64,000 nt of DNA from Acidiferrobacterales bacterium (GCA_046760105.1 JBHIDJ010000003.1:19718-83717); one strand, 5' to 3'; counted from the stretch's first letter, positions 2,725-57,938 are shown. Numbers and translations are program-made. Notes: generated by a model from the sequence alone, not told the origin.

Positions 2725-3996
2725 CTAGCGGCCGAACGAATCGATGAACATCCCTTTGAACATGAAGAAGAACATGATCGCTAGCAGTGCGCCCGCGGGC
2801 AGGGTAACAATCCAGGACATGAAGATGTTGGCCACCACGCGAATATTGATCGCGGCAATGCCGCGGGCGAAGCCAACGCCCAGTACGGCGCCCACCAGTG
2901 TATGGGTGGTAGAAATGGGCAGCCCCGTAAACGACGCCAACACGACTGTACTCGCCGCAGACAGATTGGCGGCAAACCCGCGGCTGGGGGTGAGTTCCGT
3001 AATTCTCTTACCGACGGTCAGCATGACCCGGTAACCAAACGTGAGTAGGCCGATCACGATGCCACCCCCACCGGCCAACAACACCCACGGAGGCAGCGGC
3101 GATTTCTGTAGTACCTGGCCGGTGGTGACTGTGCTTATGACCGCCGCCATGGGACCCACCGCGTTGGCGACATCATTGGAGCCGTGCGCAAACGCAACGG
3201 CGGCGGCCGTGAAGATCATCAATACCCCGAATACTTTTTCTACACTGGCGAAATGGAACTCGCGGTCGGCCTCCGGATCGATCTTGATGCGTTTAACCAA
3301 AGAGACGCCGAGCAACGTAGCCACAACAGCCAGTAGTAGTGCGATGCCGAAGCTTTCTGCCGACGTGAGGTTCAAGCCGACGTGCTTGAGCCCCTTTGTG
3401 AGGGTGAGCATGACGATGACAAAGCTGACGGCGAAGATATAGATCGGCCCGTATTTCTTGGCGTTCTTTAGGGGTTCCTCCGTATTGATGATTAGCGTCT
3501 GGATACTGTTGAACACAGCAAAGGCGACGGCGCCCGCGAGCACGGGTGACACCACCCAGCTCATGGCAATGGTTCCCACTTTTTTCCACTGTACCGCGTC
3601 CACGCCTATGCCGACGGCGGCAAAGCCTACCACCGCCCCGACAATCGTATGGGTAGTGGAGACGGGCCAACCCCGTCGCGACGCGATCAATAGCCACACC
3701 CCCGAGGCGAGCAGGGCGGCGAGCATCCCGTATATCAGTAGATCCGGCGCATCGGCGAAGACAGAGGCATCGATAATCCCTTTACGTATGGTGGAGGTCA
3801 CCTCGCCACCGGCGAGATAGGCCCCGGCGAACTCGAATATGGCGGCGATAATCACCGCCTGTATCACCGTGAGCGCGCGCGAGCCGACCGACGTCGCCAT
3901 CGCGTTGGCGACATCGTTGGCACCAATCCCCCAAGCCATAAACAGGCCGAAGGCGGTAGCAAGTGACAGGAAAACGAGGGTCGAATCTATGGACAC
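2725..3996 (-). CDS. Inorganic phosphate transporter, PiT family
   Basis: 423-aa polytopic membrane protein with duplicated GANDVANA / GSNDVANA signatures characteristic of PiT (PHO4) transporters. Confidence 0.9.
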   Translation of the reverse strand: MSIDSTLVFLSLATAFGLFMAWGIGANDVANAMATSVGSRALTVIQAVIIAAIFEFAGAYLAGGEVTSTIRKGIIDASVFADAPDLLIYGMLAALLASGVWLLIASRRGWPVSTTHTIVGAVVGFAAVGIGVDAVQWKKVGTIAMSWVVSPVLAGAVAFAVFNSIQTLIINTEEPLKNAKKYGPIYIFAVSFVIVMLTLTKGLKHVGLNLTSAESFGIALLLAVVATLLGVSLVKRIKIDPEADREFHFASVEKVFGVLMIFTAAAVAFAHGSNDVANAVGPMAAVISTVTTGQVLQKSPLPPWVLLAGGGGIVIGLLTFGYRVMLTVGKRITELTPSRGFAANLSAASTVVLASFTGLPISTTHTLVGAVLGVGFARGIAAINIRVVANIFMSWIVTLPAGALLAIMFFFMFKGMFIDSFGR

Positions 3997-4002
3997 GCCC
4001 GG

Positions 4003-4680
4003 CTATCTCGCTAGCAACAGTTGCAAGCGACTGCCGACTCGCTGGGCGTAATCCGCTACCTGCCCGACCCCCTCGATTAGCTGGTACGTAAACATCACAT
4101 CCGTGGGACGTAGATCGTCCTCGAGCCCGTAGAGAATGGCGCGCAGACGCACTTGTATGCGATCCGTCTCGCTCTCGATGGTGTTGAGCTCGACGATCAT
4201 ACTTTCCACACGTTCGACCTCGATGCCGCGAAAGCCAGTCTCCAACAGCTCGTCCAACTCATTGATGATCTCCAAGGCCTGCGCGGAGGCATCGATCACC
4301 CGATCTACGTATTCGCTAAAAAGCTCATGCATCTGTGGCGGCAAACGCATTTGGCGACCGCGCACAAGGCCAGCGATATCCTTCGCCTGATTCGCCATGT
4401 TGTCCTGCATCATCAAGACATCGAGCAGATCGCGCCGGTCAACCGGCATGAACAGGCCTATGTGAAGATTATGCCGTAGTTCTTTCTTTCGCGTGTCGGC
4501 TTCATGTTCCAACTGCGTAACCTGCTCTTGTATACGCGCGACTTCGGCCTCACTCCCGGTAAGCACGGCGGCAAAAAAGGGTTTTAACAGGCTCACACAC
4601 GAATGTACCTTGGTCATGTGTTCCTGCAAGGGGCGAATAGGTGATTTTCCGAAAAGCTTGGTGAAATAACCGGTGGGCAT
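4003..4680 (-). CDS. DUF47 / PhoU-like Pit accessory protein
   Basis: 225-aa helical protein lying 6 nt upstream of the PiT gene. N-terminus FGKSPIRPLQEHMTKVHSCV is typical of the TIGR00153/DUF47 family, which pairs with PiT. Confidence 0.8.
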   Translation of the reverse strand: MPTGYFTKLFGKSPIRPLQEHMTKVHSCVSLLKPFFAAVLTGSEAEVARIQEQVTQLEHEADTRKKELRHNLHIGLFMPVDRRDLLDVLMMQDNMANQAKDIAGLVRGRQMRLPPQMHELFSEYVDRVIDASAQALEIINELDELLETGFRGIEVERVESMIVELNTIESETDRIQVRLRAILYGLEDDLRPTDVMFTYQLIEGVGQVADYAQRVGSRLQLLLAR

Positions 4681-4869: not shown

Positions 4870-5889
<1,020 letters not shown>

Positions 5890-6070
5890 TTAGATCTCCA
5901 ACTGCGGGGACATGGCCTAGGGTATATAAAAACCCCTACCGACAGCAACGAACTTCCCTGCCCCGCAGCAGTTGCGCGCACATGGTGTAGGACACGTGGC
6001 CCGCAGATGTAGCGCTAGCAACGGCGCCCATCGGTGACCCCTGAGCGGTGGGTGGAGGTAGAACTATGGC

Positions 6071-7027
6071 CTATTTGGCCTTCTTTGCCTTCTTTTTCTT
6101 TGCCTTCTTGGCGGCCTTCTTCTTGGCTTTGGCTTTCTTTTTGACCTTTCTGGCCTTCTTGGCTGCTTTCTTCTTGGCCTTGGCCTTCTTCACTACTTTC
6201 ACTTTCTTTTTCGCCCTCACCTTCTTTTTAACCTTCTTGGCGGCCTTCTTTTTCGCTATCTTCTTCTTAGCCACTTTCTTTTTCGCTTTCTTTTTCTTGG
6301 GCTTTGCAGCCTTTGGCTTAACCGTCGGCGGGCGCGCCGACGCCGCTTCGACTCGGCTCATCGCAGCCGCCAGCGGACGAATCTGTGCTTCGACGACATC
6401 ACAGATATTCTTAAAGATGTCACTAACGCTCCCAATCCCGCGCACCGTCCGCAGCTTTCCTTGCGCTTTATAATAGGAAACCAACGGTGCGGTCTGTTCC
6501 TCGTAGACTTCGAGGCGCTTGCGCACCGCGTCTTCGTTATCGTCCGCCCGATGATGCAACACCTGACCGGTCTCGTCGTCCCTGCCAGGAACCTTAGGGG
6601 GATGAAAGTAGATGTTGTAGATCCTGCCGGTCGACGGGGCGATGCGCCGTCCCGTCAGCCGTTTCATCAACACCTCTTTGTCGACATCCACAAGAAGAGC
6701 GAGCTGCAACGGCTTACCCAGCCGCGCTAACATCGCGTCCAACTCCTGGGCCTGCGGGATATTGCGCGGGAACCCGTCGAGGATAAATCCCGATCTCGCA
6801 TCGGGTCTCGACAAGCGGTTTTGCACGACACCAAACATGACGTCGTCGGATACGAGCGCCCCCGCATCCATTGCCGCCTTCGCCCTTTTGCCTAGCTCCG
6901 TACCCGCTGCAACCTCATCGCGCAAGATATCGCCCGTCGCGATGTGGGGGATTTTAAACTTTTCGATCAATAGCTTAGCTTGTGTCCCCTTACCGGAACC
7001 TGGCGCTCCCAGAAGTACGATTCTCAT
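6071..7027 (-). CDS. adk: Adenylate kinase with a C-terminal Lys/Ala-rich histone-H1-like extension
   Basis: aa 1-~216 form a normal long-lid Adk (P-loop GAPGSGKGTQ, FILDGFPRN). aa ~237-318 are KKAK/AKKK repeats, about 50 Lys in 82 residues by hand count. No stop codon separates the two parts. Confidence 0.9.
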   Translation of the reverse strand: MRIVLLGAPGSGKGTQAKLLIEKFKIPHIATGDILRDEVAAGTELGKRAKAAMDAGALVSDDVMFGVVQNRLSRPDARSGFILDGFPRNIPQAQELDAMLARLGKPLQLALLVDVDKEVLMKRLTGRRIAPSTGRIYNIYFHPPKVPGRDDETGQVLHHRADDNEDAVRKRLEVYEEQTAPLVSYYKAQGKLRTVRGIGSVSDIFKNICDVVEAQIRPLAAAMSRVEAASARPPTVKPKAAKPKKKKAKKKVAKKKIAKKKAAKKVKKKVRAKKKVKVVKKAKAKKKAAKKARKVKKKAKAKKKAAKKAKKKKAKKAK

Positions 7028-7369
7028 CTTTCTTCTCGCTTAGGTCTGTCGGATTTGCGGTCCCTGCTTTTGCCCCCTTGGAGCCGCGGCGGGGCTAAAC
7101 TACCTTCTTGTCCCCCGACCGTCAATGGTTTTGGCGGCCTTAAGTACACGCAATTCTCCTATTTTCGCCGTAACCGTGATCGATTACAGAAATTGCGTTA
7201 ACCTACGCCCCGACTTTGAAGCTAGATCTTGGTCGCTACCTAAAGGGCGAACCGTCACGTGCGATTTGGCACCGCAGCCCCAACATTAAACATAAGGCGG
7301 ATACCCCATTTATCATTGAAAAAAATGCTCGGAATGCGGTGATTACGGTACTTTTTGGAAACTCATCCC

Positions 7370-8641
7370 ATGGCTAAAGCGAAACCAAAAAACGTGTTTT
7401 ATGCTCAGTCTGGAGGTGTGACGGCCGTTATTAACGCGACTGCCTGCGGTGTTATCGAGACTGCACGTAAGCACAAAAACAAACTTGGAAAAGTCCTAGC
7501 CGGACGCAACGGCATTATCGGCGCCCTCACCGAAGACTTGATCGATACGAGCAAGGAGTCATCATCGGCCATTCGCGGCTTGCGCTATACGCCCGGCGGG
7601 GCGTTTGGGTCAGCGCGCTACAAACTAAAGGGCCTGGACGAGAATAAGGCTGAATATGAGCGGCTGATCGAAGTATTCAAAGCCCATAACATCGGTTACT
7701 TTTTCTACAATGGCGGGGGCGACTCCCAAGACACCTCGCATAAAGTGTCGCGGATCGGCGAAAAACTCGGTTATCCGATGATATGCATCGGTATACCTAA
7801 GACTGTCGACAACGATCTACCTATTACTGACAACTGTCCGGGTTTCGGATCTGTCGCCAAGTACATCGCCACCTCGATTCGCGAGGCCGGATTCGATGTA
7901 GCCAGCATGGCCAAAACGTCGACCAAGGTCTTCGTGCTTGAAGCAATGGGACGTCATGCAGGTTGGATCGCTGCCGCCGGCGGGCTGGCGGCGGAAAAAG
8001 CCGGTGACGCGCCACATATGATTTTGTTCCCGGAGATAGTCTTTGACGAAGAGAAATTTCTCGCGAAGGTCGACAGCACCGTCAACAAATACGGTTACTG
8101 CGCCATCGTCGTCTCCGAGGGAATTAAGAACAAAGACGGCAAGTTCGTGGCCGAGGCTGGCACGCGGGACGCCTTTGGTCATGCCCAGCTCGGTGGCGTG
8201 GCACCCGCTGTCGCGCAACTGGTGAAGGACAGACTTGGGTATAAATACCACTGGGCGGTCGCCGACTACCTCCAGCGGTCTGCCCGTCATATCGCCTCCA
8301 AAACCGATGTCGAACAGGCTTATGCGCTCGGCAAGGCGGCAGTAAAGCTCGCCCTGAAGGGCCACAATGCGGTAATGCCGACTATTGTGCGTACTTCGAA
8401 CAAACCCTATAAGTGGAAGATCGGGGTGGCGAAGCTCGCCAATGTAGCCAATGTCGAAAAGAAGATGCCGCCGGACTTCATAACAAAGGATGGTTTTGGC
8501 ATTACGCGCAAGTGCCGTAACTACTTGGAACCGCTTATTAATGGCGAGGATTACCCGAAGTTCAAGAACGGCCTCCCGCAATACGTAATGCTAAAGAACG
8601 TGCCCGTAAAAAAGAAACTCAAAACACGTTTCACCGTTTAA
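7370..8641 (+). CDS. pfp: Pyrophosphate-dependent 6-phosphofructokinase (PPi-PFK)
   Basis: ~423 aa of the PFK fold (FYAQSGGVTAVINA, GGGDS, IGIPKTVDNDL, MGRHAGW). The length and motifs resemble the methanotroph/nitrifier-type PPi-PFK. The track start at 7355 is a TTG, so I prefer the ATG at 7370. An H+-PPase gene follows. Confidence 0.85.
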   Translation: MAKAKPKNVFYAQSGGVTAVINATACGVIETARKHKNKLGKVLAGRNGIIGALTEDLIDTSKESSSAIRGLRYTPGGAFGSARYKLKGLDENKAEYERLIEVFKAHNIGYFFYNGGGDSQDTSHKVSRIGEKLGYPMICIGIPKTVDNDLPITDNCPGFGSVAKYIATSIREAGFDVASMAKTSTKVFVLEAMGRHAGWIAAAGGLAAEKAGDAPHMILFPEIVFDEEKFLAKVDSTVNKYGYCAIVVSEGIKNKDGKFVAEAGTRDAFGHAQLGGVAPAVAQLVKDRLGYKYHWAVADYLQRSARHIASKTDVEQAYALGKAAVKLALKGHNAVMPTIVRTSNKPYKWKIGVAKLANVANVEKKMPPDFITKDGFGITRKCRNYLEPLINGEDYPKFKNGLPQYVMLKNVPVKKKLKTRFTV

Positions 8642-8799: not shown

Positions 8800-10833
<2,034 letters not shown>

Positions 10834-40013: not shown

Positions 40014-40559
40014 ATGATATCAAGCAACTCCTGGTTACGAATATCGACCTTGTTGAGTCTCCTACTACCTATAGCGCAGGCAGGACCGCTGCACGATGCC
40101 GCAGAACGGGGAGACCTAGACCGGGCAAGAACGCTTATTGCCCAGGGTGCCAATGTCAACGCGCGGGACACAAATGCCGCCACACCGCTCCATTGGGCAG
40201 TCTACGGGGGTCACACGGCGCTCGCGCGATGGCTAATTGCGCAGGGCGCGGATGTCTACGCGAACGAAACACCGTTTTGCCCCACACCTCCGCAAGTTGC
40301 TGCGACCTTAAGTGACGATGCGTTAACGGCGTGGCTTGATCATCAGACCGCCCACATTAACGACAACACCCAAAACGGTGTCAGGCCGTTACACTGGGCT
40401 GCAGCCGGCGGCCACCTAGCCACGGTCGAGCTGCTGATTACTGAGGGCGCCAACATTAATGCAGAAACGGCCGAAGGCATCACCCCGTTGCAAACCGCCG
40501 CTGGTATGGGCCATGAGCACATCGTGAAGTTGCTACGACGGCATGGCGCCAAAGAATAA
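40014..40559 (+). CDS. Secreted ankyrin-repeat protein
   Basis: Signal peptide (LLSLLLPIAQA), then at least 4 ANK repeats (GANVNARDTNAATPLHWAVYGGH..., GANINAETAEGITPLQTAAGMGH...). Confidence 0.85.
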   Translation: MISSNSWLRISTLLSLLLPIAQAGPLHDAAERGDLDRARTLIAQGANVNARDTNAATPLHWAVYGGHTALARWLIAQGADVYANETPFCPTPPQVAATLSDDALTAWLDHQTAHINDNTQNGVRPLHWAAAGGHLATVELLITEGANINAETAEGITPLQTAAGMGHEHIVKLLRRHGAKE

Positions 40560-40650
40560 TATGTAGCACGAGTCAGGTAGGCTTGGTCTTGTCAACGGCG
40601 GCGCGCGACGCGGTCGCCGCTACGGCAACACATTTCTTGAGACTGCGCGA

Positions 40651-41034
40651 ATGCTCAATCGGTCTCTGCCGAAGGTAATCATTTTGATCTTTGCTCTTAC
40701 TATGGCAGCCTGCAAACAGGGCGAAAGTAAGACAGCGCCTACCAGTGGCGAACAGCTGGTGACCCCAGTGGCAAAAGGCTCGGTTACGCTCAGGTGGCAA
40801 CCACCCACTCGAAATACCGATGGATCAAAGCTGACCGACTTGGCTGGCTACAAGATTTACTACGGAACGTCCAAAGAATATTACCAACGGGTAATCGACA
40901 TAAAGGACCCAACCATAACGCAATACACGATCAACCACCTACCGCCATATACATACTACTTCGTGATAATAGCGTACAACCGCGCCGGCGCCGAGAGCCA
41001 CTACTCGAACGTCGGCAGCAAGACCATCCAGTAA
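40651..41034 (+). CDS. Small lipoprotein with a fibronectin-type-III-like domain
   Basis: Lipobox LTMAAC. Then VTLRWQPPTRNTDGSKLTDLAGYKIYYG...YYFVIIAYNRAGAES, a typical FN3 strand pattern. Confidence 0.6.
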   Translation: MLNRSLPKVIILIFALTMAACKQGESKTAPTSGEQLVTPVAKGSVTLRWQPPTRNTDGSKLTDLAGYKIYYGTSKEYYQRVIDIKDPTITQYTINHLPPYTYYFVIIAYNRAGAESHYSNVGSKTIQ

Positions 41035-41139
41035 CGCCAAGCCATTCGCTCAGTAACTCCAACACCAAGCGACGAGGCGCTTGGCGTTCTTGGCCTGCTT
41101 TTTGCTTGGCTCTAACTCGATCAGTTCACGCCAACGTAG

Positions 41140-42135
41140 ATGGGCATCGACAAGAGCATCTGGCTTCCGGTAGCGGCGTTATTCAGTCCTGGCTTATCGC
41201 CCCGCACTTCGCGCGATAGCACGTGGGAGACGTTGATGGACGCCGGTACCATAGCCTACGAGCAAGGTCGCTACGCAAAAGCCGAGGAGCAGCTATGGGC
41301 CGCGCTCAAACGCGCCGAGACCTTTGGGCTTGCGGATCTGCGCGTCGTCACTAGCCTCAACAGCCTTGCCGAAGTCCATCGCGCGCAAGCTAAGTATACC
41401 GACGCGGAATCGCTCATTAAGCAAGCCTTGGCACTCCGCGAGAACACGTTCGGACCTGTCCATGCTGACGTGGCGGCTAGCCTCAACAACCTAGCGGAGC
41501 TCTTCCGAGCTCAGAGCAAACACGACGAGGCCAAATCGCTTCTCAAGCGTGCCGTATCCATTTATCAGAAGATCGTGGACACGGAACACCCTGATGTTGC
41601 CACAACCCTCAACACTCTGGCGCTCTGCTACCGTGATCAAGGCGAGCATGCTAAAGCAAAGTCATTGCTGAAAGACGCCTTAGCGATTCGGAAGAAGTCG
41701 CTGGGATCAAGACATCCGCGCGTCGCCACTACGCTCAACAATCTCGCGCTTTGTTACCGTGCCGAGGGTAACGACGCCAAAGCCGAGCCGCTGCTGAAGC
41801 AGGCTTTGAAGATCCGCGAGAAGACTCTCGGACCGCGGCATCCGCGCGTGGCCACCAGTCTCAACAATCTGGCGCAGCTCTATCGAACCCTGGGTCGACA
41901 CGGTGAGGCCGAGCGCCTATACAAGCGCGCCTTGAAGATTCTGGAGAAAGCAAAAGGAAGAAACCACGCAAAGGTGGCCAACGTCTTGGATAACTACGCC
42001 CACCTTTTGACAGACATGAAAAAACCGAAGCAGGCGGCAAAGCTTGTTGCTCGCGCAAAAATCGTTAGAAAAAAAATGGTGGATAGCGGTCCGTCAGTTG
42101 TTGGCCGTGGGCGCTACGTCCTCGGAAGTTTCTGA
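41140..42135 (+). CDS. Tetratricopeptide repeat protein (kinesin-light-chain-like TPR_10/12 repeats)
   Basis: Six or seven 42-aa repeats of the form HPxVATxLNNLAxLYRxQGxxxxAExLxKxAL. The start is uncertain (41140 or an internal Met). Confidence 0.85.
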   Translation: MGIDKSIWLPVAALFSPGLSPRTSRDSTWETLMDAGTIAYEQGRYAKAEEQLWAALKRAETFGLADLRVVTSLNSLAEVHRAQAKYTDAESLIKQALALRENTFGPVHADVAASLNNLAELFRAQSKHDEAKSLLKRAVSIYQKIVDTEHPDVATTLNTLALCYRDQGEHAKAKSLLKDALAIRKKSLGSRHPRVATTLNNLALCYRAEGNDAKAEPLLKQALKIREKTLGPRHPRVATSLNNLAQLYRTLGRHGEAERLYKRALKILEKAKGRNHAKVANVLDNYAHLLTDMKKPKQAAKLVARAKIVRKKMVDSGPSVVGRGRYVLGSF

Positions 42136-42147
42136 ACCCAGCCGTGA

Positions 42148-42176
42148 GGTGCCTGCGGCAGAGCATTCGAGGCACC
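42148..42176. terminator. Possible bidirectional hairpin between the convergent TPR gene and the HExxH gene
   Basis: GGTGCCT - 15 nt - AGGCACC, a 7-bp GC-rich stem in the 44-nt convergent gap. No U-tract. Confidence 0.35.
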
Positions 42177-42179
42177 GCG

Positions 42180-42647
42180 TCACATCCGCCAGCAGGTGCT
42201 GACTAATAATATGTGGATGTCGTTGAACGCGGGTGCCCTCCCATGTTGGGCCAGGTATTCGGCCTGCGCCGCGTATGCTGTCGGCTCTAGTTTGCGCACA
42301 CATGAAACTGCCTTATCGAATCCGTGACGATATTGAAGATAATGCACAAGCTCGTGCACAAGCACAGCCCGACCTTCTATCGTGGTGAGGTCCACGTCGT
42401 CTAACAGGTAAATCGTGCCATCTCTGGGATTGTAAACGCCGGCCACACTGATATTGTTGATATCTGGCCCGCGGGGAACGTTACCCTGGTAGAAAATTTG
42501 CACCAGCGTTCCCTGCGGAACGCTTATTACGTCAGGCACATGGGAGCCATCATACGCCAGAGGCGAATGGCCGCTGATCCACATCAACATCGCAACCGTG
42601 AGTTCTTTCATCGCGCTGCCGTAACTGAACGAGAGGATTCGTATCAA
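42180..42647 (-). CDS. Hypothetical protein with an HExxH motif (HELVHYLQ), possibly DUF6647-like
   Basis: 155-aa ORF, last gene of a tightly packed three-gene minus-strand operon. The LLDDVDLTTIEGRAVLVHELVHYLQY motif is zincin-like. The family assignment is from memory only. Confidence 0.6.
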   Translation of the reverse strand: MIRILSFSYGSAMKELTVAMLMWISGHSPLAYDGSHVPDVISVPQGTLVQIFYQGNVPRGPDINNISVAGVYNPRDGTIYLLDDVDLTTIEGRAVLVHELVHYLQYRHGFDKAVSCVRKLEPTAYAAQAEYLAQHGRAPAFNDIHILLVSTCWRM

Positions 42648-42820
42648 TCTTCAATCAACCCATCGGGCAGGAGGTCCGTGAGGTCTTGCAGTGTCCACGC
42701 CTCAGGAGGCTCCGGAACATCTTCCGGCGGCCAGATATCGAGAACATCAGGAATAACGTCGTTGCCGAACGGGTCGCCGTCCGTCCACAGGTGATCGATT
42801 TCGTCGAAAATCGGGGCCAT
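42644..42820 (-). CDS. Small, very acidic hypothetical protein (58 aa), below the ORF-track cutoff
   Basis: Hand translation gives MAPIFDEIDHLWTDGDPFGNDVIPDVLDIWPPEDVPEPPEAWTLQDLTDLLPDGLIED*. A GGGAGG Shine-Dalgarno sits ~8 nt before the ATG. The ORF starts 3 nt after the upstream stop, and its TGA overlaps the TTG start of the next ORF. Confidence 0.55.
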   Translation of the reverse strand: MAPIFDEIDHLWTDGDPFGNDVIPDVLDIWPPEDVPEPPEAWTLQDLTDLLPDGLIED

Positions 42821-42823
42821 GTC

Positions 42824-43042
42824 TTATACCTCCCACCGGTCACCACAATGATTTACGTAGTAGCCCTCCCCGGGATGCAGCAAAGGCGTACCAACGTGGA
42901 TCGTCGCGTCACGCGTGACGCTCGCCCACACTTCATCGGGGTTAAAGCCATGGTTAAAGCGGCGACGTTTCGCGACTTCCCGGGCGATCATCGCAGCCGC
43001 AAATTGGCACGCACGTGCAAGTCTTGGATTAATATGGTCCAT
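42824..43042 (-). CDS. Small basic hypothetical protein (72 aa)
   Basis: ORF preceded by AAGGAGGT ~7 nt upstream of the ATG. First gene of the three-gene operon. No family recognised. Confidence 0.55.
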   Translation of the reverse strand: MDHINPRLARACQFAAAMIAREVAKRRRFNHGFNPDEVWASVTRDATIHVGTPLLHPGEGYYVNHCGDRWEV

Positions 43043-43368
43043 AGCTCTACCTCCTTGCCCTCACACATGCGCCCCGCAAATCTCACTGCCCGCTTGTCCG
43101 CCTACCGACCTTGTTAAAAGCAATTGCTATACGGATCTGCTAGCTGCGCCGCTTGTCCTGGGGCGCTGTAGTGCAGTTGGGTCCAACAGTACAGAGATAG
43201 AGCAGCGTGATCTGTTAAGTAATACGTCGAGCGTTCGTGAAATATTTACGGTAGGGGTCCGATCAAGAAGCCAACTTTTTATCAAGCCTTTAGCAACCGC
43301 GTCTTACGTGTGTCAGCTCGTTTGTTGGATGTCCTGAGCTTTCGGCCGACCCCCACCGCGAAGAAGGC

Positions 43369-43385
43369 TTGTTAATTTTTCACAG
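43369..43385. promoter_or_regulatory. CRP-like operator candidate (TGTTA-N5-TCACA)
   Basis: TTGTTAATTTTTCACAG lies in the divergent intergenic region, 157 nt upstream of the Sel1 gene ATG. It is one mismatch from the palindrome TTGTGAA-TTT-TTCACAA seen at 57099. Confidence 0.4.
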
Positions 43386-43541
43386 CTTTTTAACAGCATA
43401 TTTCACAGAAGCTACACGCGTCTTTGGACTAATGTATTGAGCATATACAAAGGCGGTCTTGGCATACCTTCGAGGAGCTAACTGGTCGTCGAGAACAAGG
43501 TAAACCGGGTAGTTCCGTGCCTGACCGCAAGCGAGGACACT

Positions 43542-44324
43542 ATGTGCAGATTGCAGAGAAGAACAGCATCAACCATAGCGGAAGGTGAGGTGAAGGGTGA
43601 AGAATCAGGGAGAACTCTGCTGTTCAGCGGTCTCCTCCTGGGCACGCTCTATTTTTTTACTCCGTGCATAAGCCAGGCCACAGTCACGTACCATCATCAG
43701 GTGGCGGACAAGGCGCTACCTTCGCTACACGAAACAGGCCTCCTCGCGTATCGCTACAGTGAAGCCGACAAGGCAATAGAGCGCGGAAATTATGAGCAGG
43801 CTATCCATATCCTCCAGTTGCTAGCGAAACAGGGAGCCATGAAGTCCCAGTATGATCTAGGGGTCATGTATTACCATGGGCTTGGCGTTAAGCAAGACAA
43901 GGCCGAGGCCATGCGATGGAACCGTATGGCGGCCGAACAGGGGCACATAGCCGCGCAATACAACATGGGCATCGCCTATTCAACGGGGACAGGCGTCGAC
44001 CTAGACGCCGTTAAAGCTGCCGACTGGTGGCGCAAAGCCGCCCTTCAAGGCAGCACCGAGGCACAGTTTAATCTCGGTCTGATGTACGCCCAGGGTGACG
44101 GCGTGACCCAGAATATGATGCAGGCAGCCCGATGGTGGTACGAGGCAGCGACGCATGGCGATGCCGCTGCGCAGTATGCCCTCGGTCTCATGTTTGCCAG
44201 GGGCGATGGCGTTACCCAGAACCTCAACGAAGCGGCGAAGTGGTGGTATCTGGCAGCAAGCCAGGGATTTGAACGCGCCAAGAATGCCTTGAACAAGCTT
44301 CGCCTTATCGTGATACCGAAATAA
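43542..44324 (+). CDS. Sel1-like repeat (SLR) protein, probably secreted
   Basis: About five Sel1 repeats (AQYNMGIAYSTGTGV..D..KAADWWRKAA..G). A hydrophobic signal-like segment LLFSGLLLGTLYFFTPCISQA suggests the start may be downstream of 43542. The last 49 nt lie inside direct-repeat copy A. Confidence 0.85.
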   Translation: MCRLQRRTASTIAEGEVKGEESGRTLLFSGLLLGTLYFFTPCISQATVTYHHQVADKALPSLHETGLLAYRYSEADKAIERGNYEQAIHILQLLAKQGAMKSQYDLGVMYYHGLGVKQDKAEAMRWNRMAAEQGHIAAQYNMGIAYSTGTGVDLDAVKAADWWRKAALQGSTEAQFNLGLMYAQGDGVTQNMMQAARWWYEAATHGDAAAQYALGLMFARGDGVTQNLNEAAKWWYLAASQGFERAKNALNKLRLIVIPK

Positions 44325-44608: not shown

Positions 44609-46315
44609 ATGAAAAACCTCCAAATAGTGCTGAACCTCACGCGCAACCACAATCGTTTCGCCAGCCAGAGCGTTGATCTGATCGCGTCAAACTCGTGGAT
44701 TAGCCAGTTCGCACGGCTCGCCATGACCTCCTCGCTGCCGAACAGCTACTGCATCGGTCTGCCGGGTAACCGCCTCTACGGCGGATGCACCTACATCGAC
44801 ATGATCGAACGGGAGATTTGTCGACTCGCCCGCGAACTGTTCCCGATGGAGCACGTGGTGTTGCAGTTCCTCTCAGGCATGCAGGCCAACATCGGTGCCT
44901 ACAACGCCGTACTCAAACGGGGTAATACTGTAATGGCTGCCCAGTTGAAGCACGGGGGCCACTACAGTCACAACCCGCAAGGCCCATTGCGCCTTTTTTC
45001 GGCAAAACTCGTGCCGGTGCCCTTCGACGACTCCTGTTACAACATCGACGTCGATGAGCTCGCCAAGTCGCTCGCAACGCAGAAGCCAAAGCTTCTTATC
45101 GTGGGCTGGAGCGAGTTTCTGTTCCCCCATCCGCTCCCTGAGATCCGCGCGCTGTGCGACAAGCACGGCGTTCGCTTGATGTACGACATGTCGCACGTTG
45201 CCGGGCTGATCGCTGGGAAAGTCTTCCAGCCCGATGCGACCAAGTATGCCGACATCGCCACCAGCTCAACCGGCAAGTCGCTGCACGCGCCCGACCACGG
45301 CATGGTCTTTTTCAACGACAAGTCGCTAGAGACGGGTGTCCTTGACGCCGTGATGCCCCTGCTTACTTCCAATACGCACCCACACGAGATGGCGGCACTC
45401 GGCGTTGCCTTTGCCGAGATGGTAGAGTTCGGCCGAGACTACGCCTTACAGGTCGTGCGCAACTCCAAGGCCCTGGGCCGTGCGCTCGAAGAGGAGGGGC
45501 TCAAAGTCCTTTATGCGCATCTAGACTATAGCGAGAGCCATACCGTGCTCGTGGAATACGTCGCCTCGAGCGTTGCCGTGGCCCTGCTGGACCGGACCGG
45601 TATTCTGTGCAACACGTGCCCACTTCCATGGGATCCCCCACGTACCGAGACGGGTCTGCGGCTCGGGACTCAGGTCCTAACACGGCGCGGGATGCGCGAG
45701 CCCGAAATGCAGGTGATCGCCCAAGGGATCGCACGGGTACTTCTGCATGGCGAACACCCGGATCGCGTGGCCTACGAGTTTGTCAAGCCACTCGCCCAGC
45801 GATTCGATCGAACGGTGTACTCGTTTGACTTTCACTTCCCGCTGCAGCAGGACTGGTATGGCGCCCCGTACGAAGGCTACCGCGCGGAAAATGTCGACGA
45901 TGTAATCCACGAGCTCGTACCGTTCGCAAACTGCACACCCGAGCAGATCCGATCACTCGCCGAACAGCTTACTCTCGTCGTTATCGACAAGGAACAAGTG
46001 TTATTCGAGACGGGCGATGCCTCGGATAGCGTGTACTTCATCAGTGAGGGAATCGTGGAGATCATGGACCGGTCCGGTAACACGGATGTTGTGATCGGGT
46101 CTCTCGGAGAAGGCAAGCACTTCGGGGAGCTTGGTGTGATGAAAGGCATCAACCGTACCATGACTGCACGAGCACAGCCTCGCACGCGTCTGTTCCGCAT
46201 GAAGGCCGCAAACTTCGAAGAGCTGCTCAAAGACGTCCTACCGCTCAGACAGTACTTCGAGGATTACGTCCACATCATCGAAGAACAAAACCGCTGGCGA
46301 CAGCGCGCCATGTAA
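44609..46315 (+). CDS. SHMT-fold PLP-dependent enzyme fused to a C-terminal cyclic-nucleotide-binding (CAP_ED) domain
   Basis: aa 1-~430 carry GlyA-like motifs: LIASNSW, LYGGC, SGMQAN, HGGHYSH, DMSHVAGLIAG, SSTGKSL (Lys223). aa ~434-545 form a cNMP domain with the cassette FGELGV...RTMTARA. A GAGGGAGGG Shine-Dalgarno precedes the ATG. Confidence 0.85.
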   Translation: MKNLQIVLNLTRNHNRFASQSVDLIASNSWISQFARLAMTSSLPNSYCIGLPGNRLYGGCTYIDMIEREICRLARELFPMEHVVLQFLSGMQANIGAYNAVLKRGNTVMAAQLKHGGHYSHNPQGPLRLFSAKLVPVPFDDSCYNIDVDELAKSLATQKPKLLIVGWSEFLFPHPLPEIRALCDKHGVRLMYDMSHVAGLIAGKVFQPDATKYADIATSSTGKSLHAPDHGMVFFNDKSLETGVLDAVMPLLTSNTHPHEMAALGVAFAEMVEFGRDYALQVVRNSKALGRALEEEGLKVLYAHLDYSESHTVLVEYVASSVAVALLDRTGILCNTCPLPWDPPRTETGLRLGTQVLTRRGMREPEMQVIAQGIARVLLHGEHPDRVAYEFVKPLAQRFDRTVYSFDFHFPLQQDWYGAPYEGYRAENVDDVIHELVPFANCTPEQIRSLAEQLTLVVIDKEQVLFETGDASDSVYFISEGIVEIMDRSGNTDVVIGSLGEGKHFGELGVMKGINRTMTARAQPRTRLFRMKAANFEELLKDVLPLRQYFEDYVHIIEEQNRWRQRAM

Positions 46316-46719: not shown

Positions 46720-47454
46720 CTACCAGCCTGCTGGCAGCTTTTTCTTGATAGTAATCCTCTTGTCTTCGACTCTTATATATCCACCCGTCGCAAGATCTTT
46801 CAAGATGCGGCTTACCATCTCCCTTGATGCCCCCACCATGTTAGCAATATCCTGCTGAGTTAACTTTTCGGAGATTACGAAATTGCCGTTTTCCGCTGTA
46901 GCGAGGTTTGATAATGTTCTCGCAACCCGTCCGTAGACGTCCCTTAGGGCGAGGCCTTTCACGTTATCAGTCAGCATCCGTATTCGATGCGTTAACTCCT
47001 TGATGAGGGTAATCGCAATATCGGGATTCTTGGCCAGACACTCCTTGAAATCGCTCTTCGAGATGATCGAAAACCTTGAGGGCTCCAACGTCATAACAGA
47101 TGCGGACCTGGGGGCGTCATCAAGTAACGCTATTTCGCCAAAGTACTCTCCTGGCCCTTCTATATCGAGGATGATTTCTCTTCCTTGCTCGTCACTCAGA
47201 AACACTTTCACTTTGCCCGTCAGAATAACGTAGAGCGAGTCAGTAGTATCCCCCTCATTGATGACGATGGTATTTCTTGGGAATGTCTTCGTGACTGCGT
47301 GGCCGGATACCGTCGCGAGATCCGCTTGTGCCAGGCTCGCAAAAAGCGGGATGCCCTCGAAGACGCCCCCCGTCTGCGCGGCGGTGAGACCCGTATACCG
47401 GACTGAATTGTAGCCCACCGTCGCTTGCGCTGCGCTCAGATTGCTGGTAGTCAC
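46720..47454 (-). CDS. Crp/Fnr-family transcriptional regulator with a cNMP-binding domain
   Basis: 244 aa. The cNMP cassette is FGEIALLDDAPRSASVMT (RS as in the E. coli CRP cAMP site). The HTH is TQQDIANMVGASREMVSRILKDL, retaining the CRP R-E-x-x-x-R DNA-contact pattern (CRP: SRETVGR). Confidence 0.9.
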   Translation of the reverse strand: MTTSNLSAAQATVGYNSVRYTGLTAAQTGGVFEGIPLFASLAQADLATVSGHAVTKTFPRNTIVINEGDTTDSLYVILTGKVKVFLSDEQGREIILDIEGPGEYFGEIALLDDAPRSASVMTLEPSRFSIISKSDFKECLAKNPDIAITLIKELTHRIRMLTDNVKGLALRDVYGRVARTLSNLATAENGNFVISEKLTQQDIANMVGASREMVSRILKDLATGGYIRVEDKRITIKKKLPAGW

Positions 47455-53672: not shown

Positions 53673-54842
53673 GTGAGAACGCCACCGCAGATCCTCATCG
53701 TGGACGACAACCCGACGAACGTGGATATCCTTCAGGCACGCCTCACCGTGCACGGCTATGACATTCTCACGGCGAGCGACGGCGAGCAAGCTGTAAGCAT
53801 CGCCAGAGAAAGGCAGCCAGATCTCATTTTGTTGGATGTCATGATGCCAAAAATGGATGGCATCGAGGTCTGTCGACACCTCAAAGGCGATCCCTCGCTG
53901 CCGTTTATGCCGATTATCCTGGTCACAGCTAAGTCGGATTCGAAGGACGTGGTCGCCGGTCTGGAGGCGGGTGCCGAGGAGTATCTGACCAAGCCCGTAG
54001 ACCAACAGGCGCTCGTGGCAAGGGTCAAGTCGATGTTGAAGATTAAGGACCTCCACGATACGACCCAAGAGCAGGCGGCCCAGCTCTCGCAGTGGAACCG
54101 GACGCTCGAGGAGCGCGTCAAGGAGCAACTCGCAGAGCTGGAGCGCATGAGCCAGCTGAAGCGATTCTTCTCTCCGCATCTCGCGAAGCTCATCGTGTCC
54201 TCCGGAGACAAGAGCTTCCTCAAAAGCCACCGACAGGATATCACCGTGCTCTTCTGTGACCTCCGCGGGTACACGACATTCGCGACGAGCGCCGAGCCCG
54301 AAGAGGAAATCCAGCTGCTGGACGAGTACCACAAGGTCGTCGGTTCCTTGGTATTCGGCTTCGAGGCAACCCTGGAGCACTACGCCGGGGATGGGATCAT
54401 GGCGTTCTTCAACGACCCGATACCCTGTCCTTCTCCGGCGGTGCGCGCCATCCGGATGGCATTGGCGATGCAACGGGAGGTCGGCGAGTTGCTCGAGGGG
54501 TGGCGGAAACGCGGCTTCGACTTGGGGTTCGGCGTGGGGATTGCCATGGGGTACGCCACGTTGGGACAGATCGGTTTCGAAGGCCAATTTCACTACGCCG
54601 CCGTCGGCTCTGTGTCTAACCTTGCGGCGCGCCTTTGCGACAAGGCCCAAAGCGGGCAGATCCTGATCTCCCAGCGGGTCTACGCGGAACTCGAGGGGCT
54701 GGCAGAGGCTGAACCGGTCGGAGAGCTCGCTCTCAAGGGATTCGAGAAGCCCTTACCCGCCTATAACGTGCTCGCAATAAAGGCCGATGAATCTCCTCAC
54801 GAGGAAACTCAGTCTCCGGGGTCGAGCGACGGGAGGCGGTGA
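53673..54842 (+). CDS. Response regulator with a class III adenylate/guanylate cyclase output domain
   Basis: REC (ILIVDDNPTN, ILLDVMMPKMDG, VTAKS, LTKP), a coiled-coil linker, then CYCc (ITVLFCDLRGYTTFA..., GDGIMAFFNDP, GIAMGYATLGQIGF..., NLAARL). Confidence 0.88.
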   Translation: MRTPPQILIVDDNPTNVDILQARLTVHGYDILTASDGEQAVSIARERQPDLILLDVMMPKMDGIEVCRHLKGDPSLPFMPIILVTAKSDSKDVVAGLEAGAEEYLTKPVDQQALVARVKSMLKIKDLHDTTQEQAAQLSQWNRTLEERVKEQLAELERMSQLKRFFSPHLAKLIVSSGDKSFLKSHRQDITVLFCDLRGYTTFATSAEPEEEIQLLDEYHKVVGSLVFGFEATLEHYAGDGIMAFFNDPIPCPSPAVRAIRMALAMQREVGELLEGWRKRGFDLGFGVGIAMGYATLGQIGFEGQFHYAAVGSVSNLAARLCDKAQSGQILISQRVYAELEGLAEAEPVGELALKGFEKPLPAYNVLAIKADESPHEETQSPGSSDGRR

Positions 54843-57204: not shown

Positions 57205-57512
57205 TTTCTGATGGCAACGCTACATAGAGCGAGCAACCAGGAGTCTAGTAAGGTGACAAGCATCCAAACATTTAGCGGGTTATCCGGGCGAGGGCTCGCG
57301 CTGCAGACGCGAGGCTTATCCGCTGCGGCACCCACAGTGACTATGAACAGAAGGAATGACGAGACGATACAAGAGTACGAACGCCCGATACCTGGGGTAA
57401 CTGGTAGGGACGTTTTTTGTGCATGGATTGTAGTCGCTACATTTCTGCTCGGGTTGCTTGTGTTGTCCGTGGTTTAACGAGAACCCGAAAAATAGCAAGA
57501 GAGAATTCGCGA

Positions 57513-57938
57513 ATGCGGTTGACCAAACTCATAGCCTCGCTATTTGTCAGAGGTGGGCAAACGCTCCACATGCGAACTTATAAGGAAGGATTGGCCGCCT
57601 ATAAGTCTGGGCACTATAGCGCGGCAGTAGCTAGTCTAAGGCCGTATGCTAAGAAGGGCGATGCACTGGCGCAGCTGACGCTTGGCAACATGTACAAGAA
57701 AGGTCTTGGGGTGCCGAAGGACCTCGATCAAGCGGCGCATTGGTACCGCAAAGCGGCGACTCAGGGGGATCCTGACGCGAAGTTTAATCTGGGAATCATG
57801 TACATCAGGGGGGACGGTGTAACCGGCGACAAAGGTCAAGCGTTAAACTGGCTGAAGGACGCGGCAGAACAGGGCCACAGACAAGCCAGGCTCGCTTATG
57901 AATACATCACGAGGCAAGAGTACCAGAACGTCTGTTGA
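57513..57938 (+). CDS. Sel1-like repeat protein (short)
   Basis: About three Sel1 repeats (AQLTLGNMYKKGLGVPKDLDQAAHWYRKAATQGDPDAKFNLGIMYIRGDGV...). I prefer the ATG at 57513 over the longer track ORF from 57417. Confidence 0.8.
   Translation: MRLTKLIASLFVRGGQTLHMRTYKEGLAAYKSGHYSAAVASLRPYAKKGDALAQLTLGNMYKKGLGVPKDLDQAAHWYRKAATQGDPDAKFNLGIMYIRGDGVTGDKGQALNWLKDAAEQGHRQARLAYEYITRQEYQNVC

Follow-up and report, generated by a model that had tools for sequence, protein, structure and literature searches.

Why would a bacterial adenylate kinase (Adk) end in a long run of lysines? This question is raised by adk in a 64,000-nucleotide (nt) stretch of DNA from an Acidiferrobacterales bacterium (GCA_046760105.1, JBHIDJ010000003.1:19718-83717), referred to as the window throughout, in which a single open reading frame (ORF) runs from an Adk core through an Ala/Pro-rich linker into a Lys-rich tail (Table 1). 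We analyzed the reading frame, its spread among relatives, the composition of the tail and the genomic neighborhood. The fusion of Adk and tail is genuine and in frame, is confined to Adk and has been kept across a large clade, with tails under selection for Lys and against poly(A). By analogy with other Lys-rich tails, the tail probably works as a disordered polycation by which active Adk is tethered to a polyanion of the cell, be it nucleoid DNA, RNA and/or polyphosphate (polyP).

The tail is in frame with the Adk core

The original prediction held that the adk ORF continues without a stop into a tail at 6074..6319 with about 50 Lys in 82 residues by hand count. The 318-amino-acid (aa) ORF indeed carries this tail, and both the coordinates and the count are exact. 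On the coding strand, the two other frames contain 5 and 2 stops across the tail, despite a purine content of 80% and only 11 T, so that only the Lys frame is open. The Phe/Leu-rich mirror ORF that had been pointed out on the opposite strand was found as well, as an antisense image only. The tandem repeats in the tail tract are imperfect and weak, with periods that are all multiples of 3, a further sign of a coding tract, and the GC content at third codon positions is alike in tail (0.68) and core (0.67).

Purine-rich repeats are prone to sequencing error, and an indel could hide a stop near codon 220, which would make the tail non-coding or a separate gene. This concern, raised together with the prediction, is dispelled by three lines of evidence that, as far as sequence data allow, rule out a frameshift or indel artifact. 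The 957-nt adk is identical in assemblies of five separate sequencing runs, where it is flanked by the genes for pyrophosphate (PPi)-dependent phosphofructokinase (pfp) and porphobilinogen synthase (hemB) wherever the contig extends to those genes; the alternative frames contain stops; and the relatives described below are in frame in 80 of 80 species genomes and in at least 120 database homologues, including the genome of an isolate. We assign a negligible probability to this explanation.

The order of the Lys codons avoids poly(A). When the Lys codons of the window tail are shuffled, 2.5 AAA-AAA neighbors are expected, whereas the actual tail has none, and its A-runs reach at most 5 nt instead of the expected 7.9. 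Across 79 related tails, we counted 56 A-runs of at least 7 nt versus 309 expected and 164 AAA-AAA neighbors versus 273 expected. Such a codon order is a signature of a sequence that needs faithful replication and translation.

The tail is conserved across a large clade and specific to Adk

A first homologue search returned at least 120 proteins of 285–392 aa, all with Lys-rich C-termini and all in frame. Since Lys words could have biased this search, it was repeated with patterns drawn from the core only. Applied to GTDB species genomes, these patterns yielded a best set of 80 loci with core identities of 54–85%, and every one of them reads through in frame from the core into a Lys-rich extension (7 genes run off the contig end). 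The complete genes carry 21–93 Lys per extension, and extension length ranges from 58 to 254 aa with a median of 158 (79 genes of at least 270 aa). The taxon labels comprise Acidiferrobacterales, 'Candidatus Muproteobacteria', Thiohalobacterales, Thiohalomonadales, Natronospirales, Ectothiorhodospiraceae and Chromatiales metagenome-assembled genomes; a few others ('Nitrospira', 'Bacillota') probably reflect mis-binning. The cultured isolate Thiohalobacter thiocyanaticus Hrh1 (L007) has a tailed Adk of 448 aa.

We also searched 1.84 billion cluster representatives with the core only. The matches were dominated by giant, apparently eukaryotic proteins with multiple Adk domains and were therefore filtered to single-domain proteins. 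All single-domain matches at an identity of at least 57% are 318–488 aa long, and 32 of the filtered representatives have Lys-rich tails of 89–294 aa. The first Adk of normal length among the representatives (P0209, 224 aa) appears at 56% identity. Metagenome relatives of this tail-less Adk served as a control set: 78 of the 79 complete genes are of normal length, and none has a Lys-rich tail. The tail could have been an isolated oddity, and a search of Adk orthologues for the same extension had been proposed; that search finds it in all 80 nearest species genomes and normal length in the controls.

In a neighbor-joining tree of 150 cores, calculated without support values, tail-less Adk proteins are basal and tailed ones form essentially one group with two short exceptions. 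A common origin of the tails is supported by the shared junction motif IRPL, in which R217, P218 and L219 are invariant among 41 relatives and which recurs as IRPLE.KV in many distant cluster representatives. A single old acquisition of the tail with rare loss would be the simplest reading, for which the tree is indicative only.

A lineage-wide habit of appending Lys-rich tails was considered and ruled out for the window and the flanks of the relatives. Among the ORFs of the 64-kb window, adk is alone in having a Lys-rich stretch, and 740 kb of sequence flanking the 80 relatives contain no comparable Lys-rich tail. Borderline cases in the flanks are limited to a KKKLKK C-terminus of PPi-phosphofructokinase, an N-terminal stretch of the same enzyme at locus L041, and off-frame readings of the tail itself.

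Several variations at the related loci are recorded here in their own right. At L041 (4163-5536, minus strand), the PPi-phosphofructokinase encoded beside adk is extended at its N-terminus by a short Lys-rich stretch (MAKKATKKTAKKKAVKKTAKK); apart from the Adk tails, no further Lys-rich appendage was seen in the 740 kb of flanks. One sub-clade of tailed Adk proteins (L050-L053, L055, L056, L061, L065, L068 and L069) ends in His/Asp/Lys repeats, e.g., KKHKKDKKKHKKEKKKDKKKHKK, and not in Ala/Lys; the same sub-clade is also without an adjacent pfp. A short Lys-rich stretch (MAKKKKDSEKRPKRKAFKKKEKR) also extends the N-terminus of ribosomal protein S11 at two distant loci with a tail-less Adk (L159 5662-6099, L163 3720-4157), where the neighbors of adk are ribosomal protein genes.

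An intact Adk core continues into an H1-like polycation

The core has the P-loop (GxPGxGKGT), the catalytic Arg and Asp residues and the ~36-aa LID insertion of long-type Adk, a single-domain class of ~180–245 aa that the 318-aa protein exceeds in size. At E ≤ 1, Pfam matched only Adk and P-loop families in the whole protein (ADK, PF00406, aa 5–190, E 9e-56; ADK_lid, PF05191, aa 127–162, E 6e-12) and left everything beyond aa 190, the tail included, unmatched. The P-loop and R36, R88, R123, R127, R128, R160, D162, D163 and R171 are invariant in 41 relatives; we take R36, R88, R123, R160, D162, D163 and R171 to be equivalent to R36, R88, R123, R156, D158, D159 and R167 of E. coli Adk. To judge from these conserved residues, the core is presumably catalytically active. 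The best PDB match is 5x6j (E 4e-65, aa 1–211), and E. coli 1ake matches at E 6e-59. The 60 solved Adk/AK chains among the matches listed are all 203–245 aa long and align only to residues 1–214, which places the extension outside the known Adk fold.

The LID of the window Adk (6542-6649) is of the non-zinc type (APST...DDET), whereas a Cys4 zinc site (CxSCG...KCDKCG) forms the majority consensus of 41 close relatives with tails. The difference looks like the result of a recent loss of the site.

In the AlphaFold2 model, the core has a predicted local distance difference test score (pLDDT) of ~90, and the last Adk helix is prolonged through aa 201–231. The pLDDT drops below 50 at aa 244–280, followed by a low-confidence helix at aa 282–316. 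The model thus suggests an intrinsically disordered tail that would leave the CORE domain via an extended terminal helix. The 82 tail residues are 50 K, 20 A, 7 V, 2 P, 2 R and 1 I. At the Lys frequency of the core (14/216), the binomial probability of at least 50 K in 82 residues is 3e-38, and the net charge is +52 for the tail versus +4 for the core.

The C-terminal domains of H1-type proteins contain ~35–40% Lys and 20–30% Ala with some Pro, Ser and Thr and far more Lys than Arg; they are disordered and almost devoid of aromatic and acidic residues. Pooled, the 79 extensions belong to this composition class (K 34.5, A 23.3, V 7.8, P 7.0, T 6.4, R 4.2 and S 4.0%; D+E 3.8%, F+W+Y 0.2%, L+I 3%), and the window tail is more extreme (K 61%, P 2.4%). 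The likeness to H1, AlgP and PhaF that had been proposed for the tail is supported by this composition. The K/R ratio is 8.2 in extensions versus 0.57 in cores and is independent of genome GC content over 43–68% (r = −0.15). Both the contrast and the GC independence argue that Lys itself has been selected, rather than positive charge or a drift toward AT-rich sequence.

Tail sequence is far less conserved than tail presence. In the closest genomes, identity is 55–62% in the extension versus 80–85% in the core, and it falls to ~30% further out; perfect tandem arrays such as those of KKKATS and KKAAT in L026 and L008 are signs of recent duplication. Weak conservation of sequence and length, together with such duplication, would suit a low-complexity expansion that has no binding partner and is tolerated or weakly useful, e.g., as an entropic bristle or a modulator of solubility or half-life. 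We nevertheless judge this very unlikely, given that all members of a deep clade retain the tail, which occurs on Adk alone, with GC-independent selection of Lys over Arg and avoidance of poly(A).

The tail as a probable tether to a cellular polyanion

In the mechanism that we favor, one polypeptide would combine an intact Adk with an intrinsically disordered, H1-like polycation of 82 aa and net charge +52, the two being joined by a short Ala-rich linker that continues the last Adk helix. The tail would act as an electrostatic tether on a polyanion of the cell, with the nucleoid (DNA or RNA) and/or polyP as the most probable target, so that the equilibration AMP + ATP ⇌ 2 ADP would be concentrated at this polyanion instead of being spread through the cytoplasm. 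Binding of a polyanion is suggested by the composition of the tail and by analogy with known proteins; nucleoid DNA, RNA and polyP are the realistic targets.

Several observations weigh against the tether. The low conservation of tail sequence and the length range of 58–254 aa are compatible with any function that requires charge only. The Hc1 and linker-histone models of Pfam do not match the tail (filters for composition bias may hide such matches), and the protein contains no KPAA motifs and the tail no S/TPKK motifs, the motifs found being AKKK (seven times), KKAK (six times) and AKKA (three times). The likeness to H1 and AlgP is therefore one of composition and not of homology. Genes of polyP metabolism are absent from the window (Pfam on long ORFs, which revealed no ppk, ppx or sulfur-oxidation genes) and from the common neighbors of related adk genes (clusters read by eye). 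Finally, sequence alone cannot pick the target.

Of the four targets listed in the original prediction (DNA, RNA, polyP and acidic membranes), the membrane is the least favored, because the extensions are almost without aromatics and have few hydrophobic residues. A polybasic anchor would hold Adk on anionic phospholipids near the H+-translocating pyrophosphatase (H+-PPase) or the respiratory chain. Polybasic stretches can bind acidic lipids, and hppA, which encodes a membrane protein, belongs to the conserved neighborhood. With 0.2% F+W+Y and 3% L+I, and with no amphipathic helix apparent, the extensions fit the composition of DNA- or polyP-binding tails instead, and we regard an anchor of this kind as highly improbable.

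A more specific variant assigns the tether to polyP: Adk would be parked on polyP granules and, together with polyP kinase (PPK), would act as a polyP:AMP phosphotransferase and regenerate ADP and ATP. Plain Lys repeats are reported to bind polyP, and the binding of Lys-rich sequences to polyP is strong and non-covalent (PMC12077175, PMC12345225). AlgP, which is similar in composition, is a genuine polyP-granule protein, and overexpression of PPK1 in E. coli results in increased polyP:AMP phosphotransferase activity via adenylate kinase (PMC3163519). The neighborhood is themed on phosphate and PPi (Pit, PhoU_div, pfp, hppA; soluble pyrophosphatase, ppa, in 16 loci), and some sister tails end in His/Lys/Asp repeats (KKHKKDKKK), to which a study of histidine repeats and polyP is relevant. 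By contrast, neither ppk1, ppk2 nor ppx was found in the window or the conserved flanks, and the available evidence does not separate polyP from DNA. The PASK criterion requires a 20-aa window with at least 75% D/E/S/K; the best window of the tail (KKAKAKKKAAKKAKKKKAKK) reaches a fraction of 0.70. We consider polyP as the specific target a possible but rather unlikely case of the tether.

A putative internal start in a sister sub-clade

At 17 of the 80 loci, the Shine-Dalgarno sequence AAGGAG, followed after 8 nt by an in-frame ATG and then by (A/T)AKK, lies directly before the Lys-rich part of adk. The nucleotide island shared by these loci, gccAa.AAGGAg.Cca..Acc ATG.C.GcaAAa., stands in an otherwise unalignable linker and is kept between lineages whose cores are only 67–81% identical (L023, L029, L030, L031, L033, L034, L036, L041, L047, L058, L063, L064, L066, L067, L074, L076 and L080). 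At L041, for example, it is located at adk codon 290. The island suggests either an internal start for a free H1-like protein of ~50–150 aa or a relic of the fusion with a small Lys-rich gene. For the window adk, an internal start was considered and rejected: Met223 is conserved, and the clade of the window is without a Shine-Dalgarno-like sequence in front of it. Two tail-less relatives contain a free Lys/Ala-rich ORF of ~195 aa, starting with MAKAKKK, two genes downstream of adk.

These observations bear on whether the Lys-rich segment is itself the functional unit, an H1-like nucleoid protein for which adk is mainly a carrier or expression vehicle, and which a sister sub-clade may also make as a free protein. 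The conserved island and the free MAKAKKK ORFs point in this direction, but two free genes per 80 could be a coincidence, and the clade of the window is without the Shine-Dalgarno-like sequence. None of the 80 genes, not even the 17 that carry the internal motif, has its frame interrupted between core and tail, which would be unexpected if only the free protein mattered. We disfavor the carrier as an unlikely explanation and retain the tether.

A wider form of the tether, which we put forward as a speculative extension, would make Adk a resident enzyme of chromatin or polyP granules, at once an architectural protein and a buffer of AMP, ADP, ATP and Mg2+, perhaps coupled to PPK as a polyP:AMP phosphotransferase, with a nested free H1-like protein in the sister sub-clade.

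Genome neighborhood

The coordinates of adk and its neighbors are summarized in Table 1. The link to neighboring PPi genes, noted in the original prediction, is real and conserved: a divergent pfp is present at 55 of 80 related loci, hppA at 31, hemB at 24, and the PhoU_div and Pit pair at 17–18. At 16 loci, the region beyond pfp where the window has hppA contains a gene (ppa) for a soluble family-I inorganic pyrophosphatase, identified by eye (e.g., L063, a 182-aa ORF 2272-2820 nt upstream of adk on the minus strand). The common neighbor clusters, likewise read by eye, are RNase D, Mpl, soluble pyrophosphatase, AroE, UbiX and HemL. Since pfp also lies near adk in 11 of 80 tail-less control loci, the adjacency of adk and pfp does not depend on the tail. 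Thiotrophic and methanotrophic Gammaproteobacteria are known to have the pfp-hppA pair (PMC4136832). The pfp gene is called with 423 aa in other assemblies.

The intergenic region between adk and pfp contains a single, weak promoter-like site (7287-7316, plus strand). A structured RNA in this region was rejected, as the Rfam match is at chance level (15 bits versus a gathering score of 40).

Table 1 Features of the adk locus and of related loci (window coordinates unless a locus is named)
Feature	Position	Strand	Evidence or remark
adk, complete ORF: Adk core, linker and Lys-rich tail	6071..7027	(-)	957 nt, 318 aa, TAG stop 6071-6073
Adk core, long type with LID, aa 1-216	6380..7027	(-)	Pfam, PDB match, AlphaFold2 model
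P-loop GAPGSGKGT, aa 7-15	6983..7009	(-)	Read in sequence; columns invariant among 41 relatives
LID insertion, aa 127-162	6542..6649	(-)	Pfam ADK_lid, E 6e-12
Ala/Pro-rich linker, aa 217-236, RPLAAAMSRVEAASARPPTV	6320..6379	(-)	Junction motif IRPL conserved
Lys-rich tail, aa 237-318	6074..6319	(-)	50 K of 82, net +52, pI 12
Phe/Leu-rich ORF, not a gene	6048..6473	(+)	Antisense of AAG/AAA-rich tail tract
Intergenic region between divergent adk and pfp	7028..7369	.	No Rfam match at gathering score
PPi-dependent phosphofructokinase (pfp), divergent from adk	7370..8641	(+)	Pfam PFK, 1e-48
H+-translocating pyrophosphatase (hppA)	8800..10833	(+)	Pfam H_PPase, 1e-272
hemB (porphobilinogen synthase), immediately downstream of adk	4870..5883	(-)	Pfam ALAD, 2.5e-140
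PhoU_div (DUF47) and Pit/PHO4 phosphate transporter pair	2725..4680	(-)	Pfam
Free Lys/Ala-rich ORFs in tail-less relatives	L108 2613-3218; L112 2759-3448	(+)	MAKAKKK...

Elsewhere in the window, 44609-46315 (plus strand) encodes a 568-aa protein with a serine hydroxymethyltransferase-like pyridoxal phosphate domain (aa 8–372) and a C-terminal cyclic-nucleotide-binding domain (aa 458–541); a Crp-family regulator (46720-47454) and a response-regulator/cyclase gene (53673-54842) are located nearby. A cluster of eukaryote-like repeat proteins at 40014-44324 comprises ankyrin (40014-40559), TPR (41140-42135) and Sel1 (43542-44324) genes, and another Sel1 protein is encoded at 57417-57938.

Comparison with known systems

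Bacterial energy metabolism is usually seen as well mixed. If the tether is true, the tailed Adk would be a clear case of spatially organized nucleotide metabolism and would tie the field of polyP, nucleoid and condensates (AlgP, Hfq, lysine-polyP interactions) to core energetics. The clade in question is a large and mainly uncultured group of Gammaproteobacteria that includes sulfur oxidizers, and the tailed Adk is common in abundant sediment and symbiont-type members with a PPi-based economy (pfp, hppA). The cultured Thiohalobacter thiocyanaticus makes it directly testable. The tail has been invisible in databases because annotation pipelines label these proteins plain 'adenylate kinase'.

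The novelty of the fusion was to be given up if it proved both widespread and already characterized. It is widespread, occurring in all 80 nearest species, and our literature searches, which most papers in subscription journals lay beyond, found no paper describing a Lys-rich-tailed Adk and no bacterial Adk positioned by an appended sequence. Lys-rich bacterial tails and Adk are each known, but these searches gave no description of a small-molecule metabolic enzyme on which an H1-like tail is fixed throughout a clade.

Canonical long-type Adk (E. coli 1AKE/4AKE, Bacillus 1P3J/1ZIN) aligns end to end with aa 1–214 (E 4e-65 to 6e-59), and its P-loop, NMP-binding and LID elements and catalytic Arg/Asp residues are all present in the window Adk, whereas the ~100 additional C-terminal residues have no counterpart.

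The tail itself resembles several polycations. Chlamydia Hc1 and Hc2, Bordetella BpH1 and the C-terminal domain of histone H1 are Lys/Ala-rich polycations that bind or condense DNA. The Adk tail is similar in composition; it differs in lacking a Pfam match to these proteins and S/TPKK motifs, and the proteins themselves either stand alone or are joined to a globular domain of the winged-helix type. Actinobacterial topoisomerase I and HupB/MDP1 carry Lys-repeat C-terminal tails that raise their residence on a polyanion, and as in Adk the tail sits on a housekeeping protein. In these cases, however, DNA is the substrate, while the substrates of Adk are small nucleotides, so that its tail could serve only localization or scaffolding.

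In AlgP, a K/A/P-rich C-terminal domain binds DNA, localizes to polyP granules and is required for granule spacing, and in PhaF the homologous domain ties polyhydroxyalkanoate granules to the nucleoid (PMC9239181). Their disordered C-terminal tails are very similar in composition to the pooled Adk extensions. In contrast to the window tail with 61% Lys, no KPAA and 2 Pro, they consist of regular KPAA repeats with ~25% Lys, and their partner domain is structural or a phasin and not a metabolic enzyme.

Placement of Adk activity also has precedents. E. coli Adk is functionally coupled to polyP through PPK1 (PMC3163519); it is tail-less and the coupling depends on PPK, so that a polyP-binding tail would, by analogy, be a hard-wired version of this coupling. 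E. coli Adk is further listed in the T4 dNTP synthetase complex, and eukaryotic AK isoforms are placed by appended sequences, as in the myristoylation of AK1-beta, nuclear AK6 and flagellar AKs (PMC2680645). These isoforms position Adk activity at defined cellular sites, as the Lys-rich tail may do in the clade described here, with targeting devices that differ.

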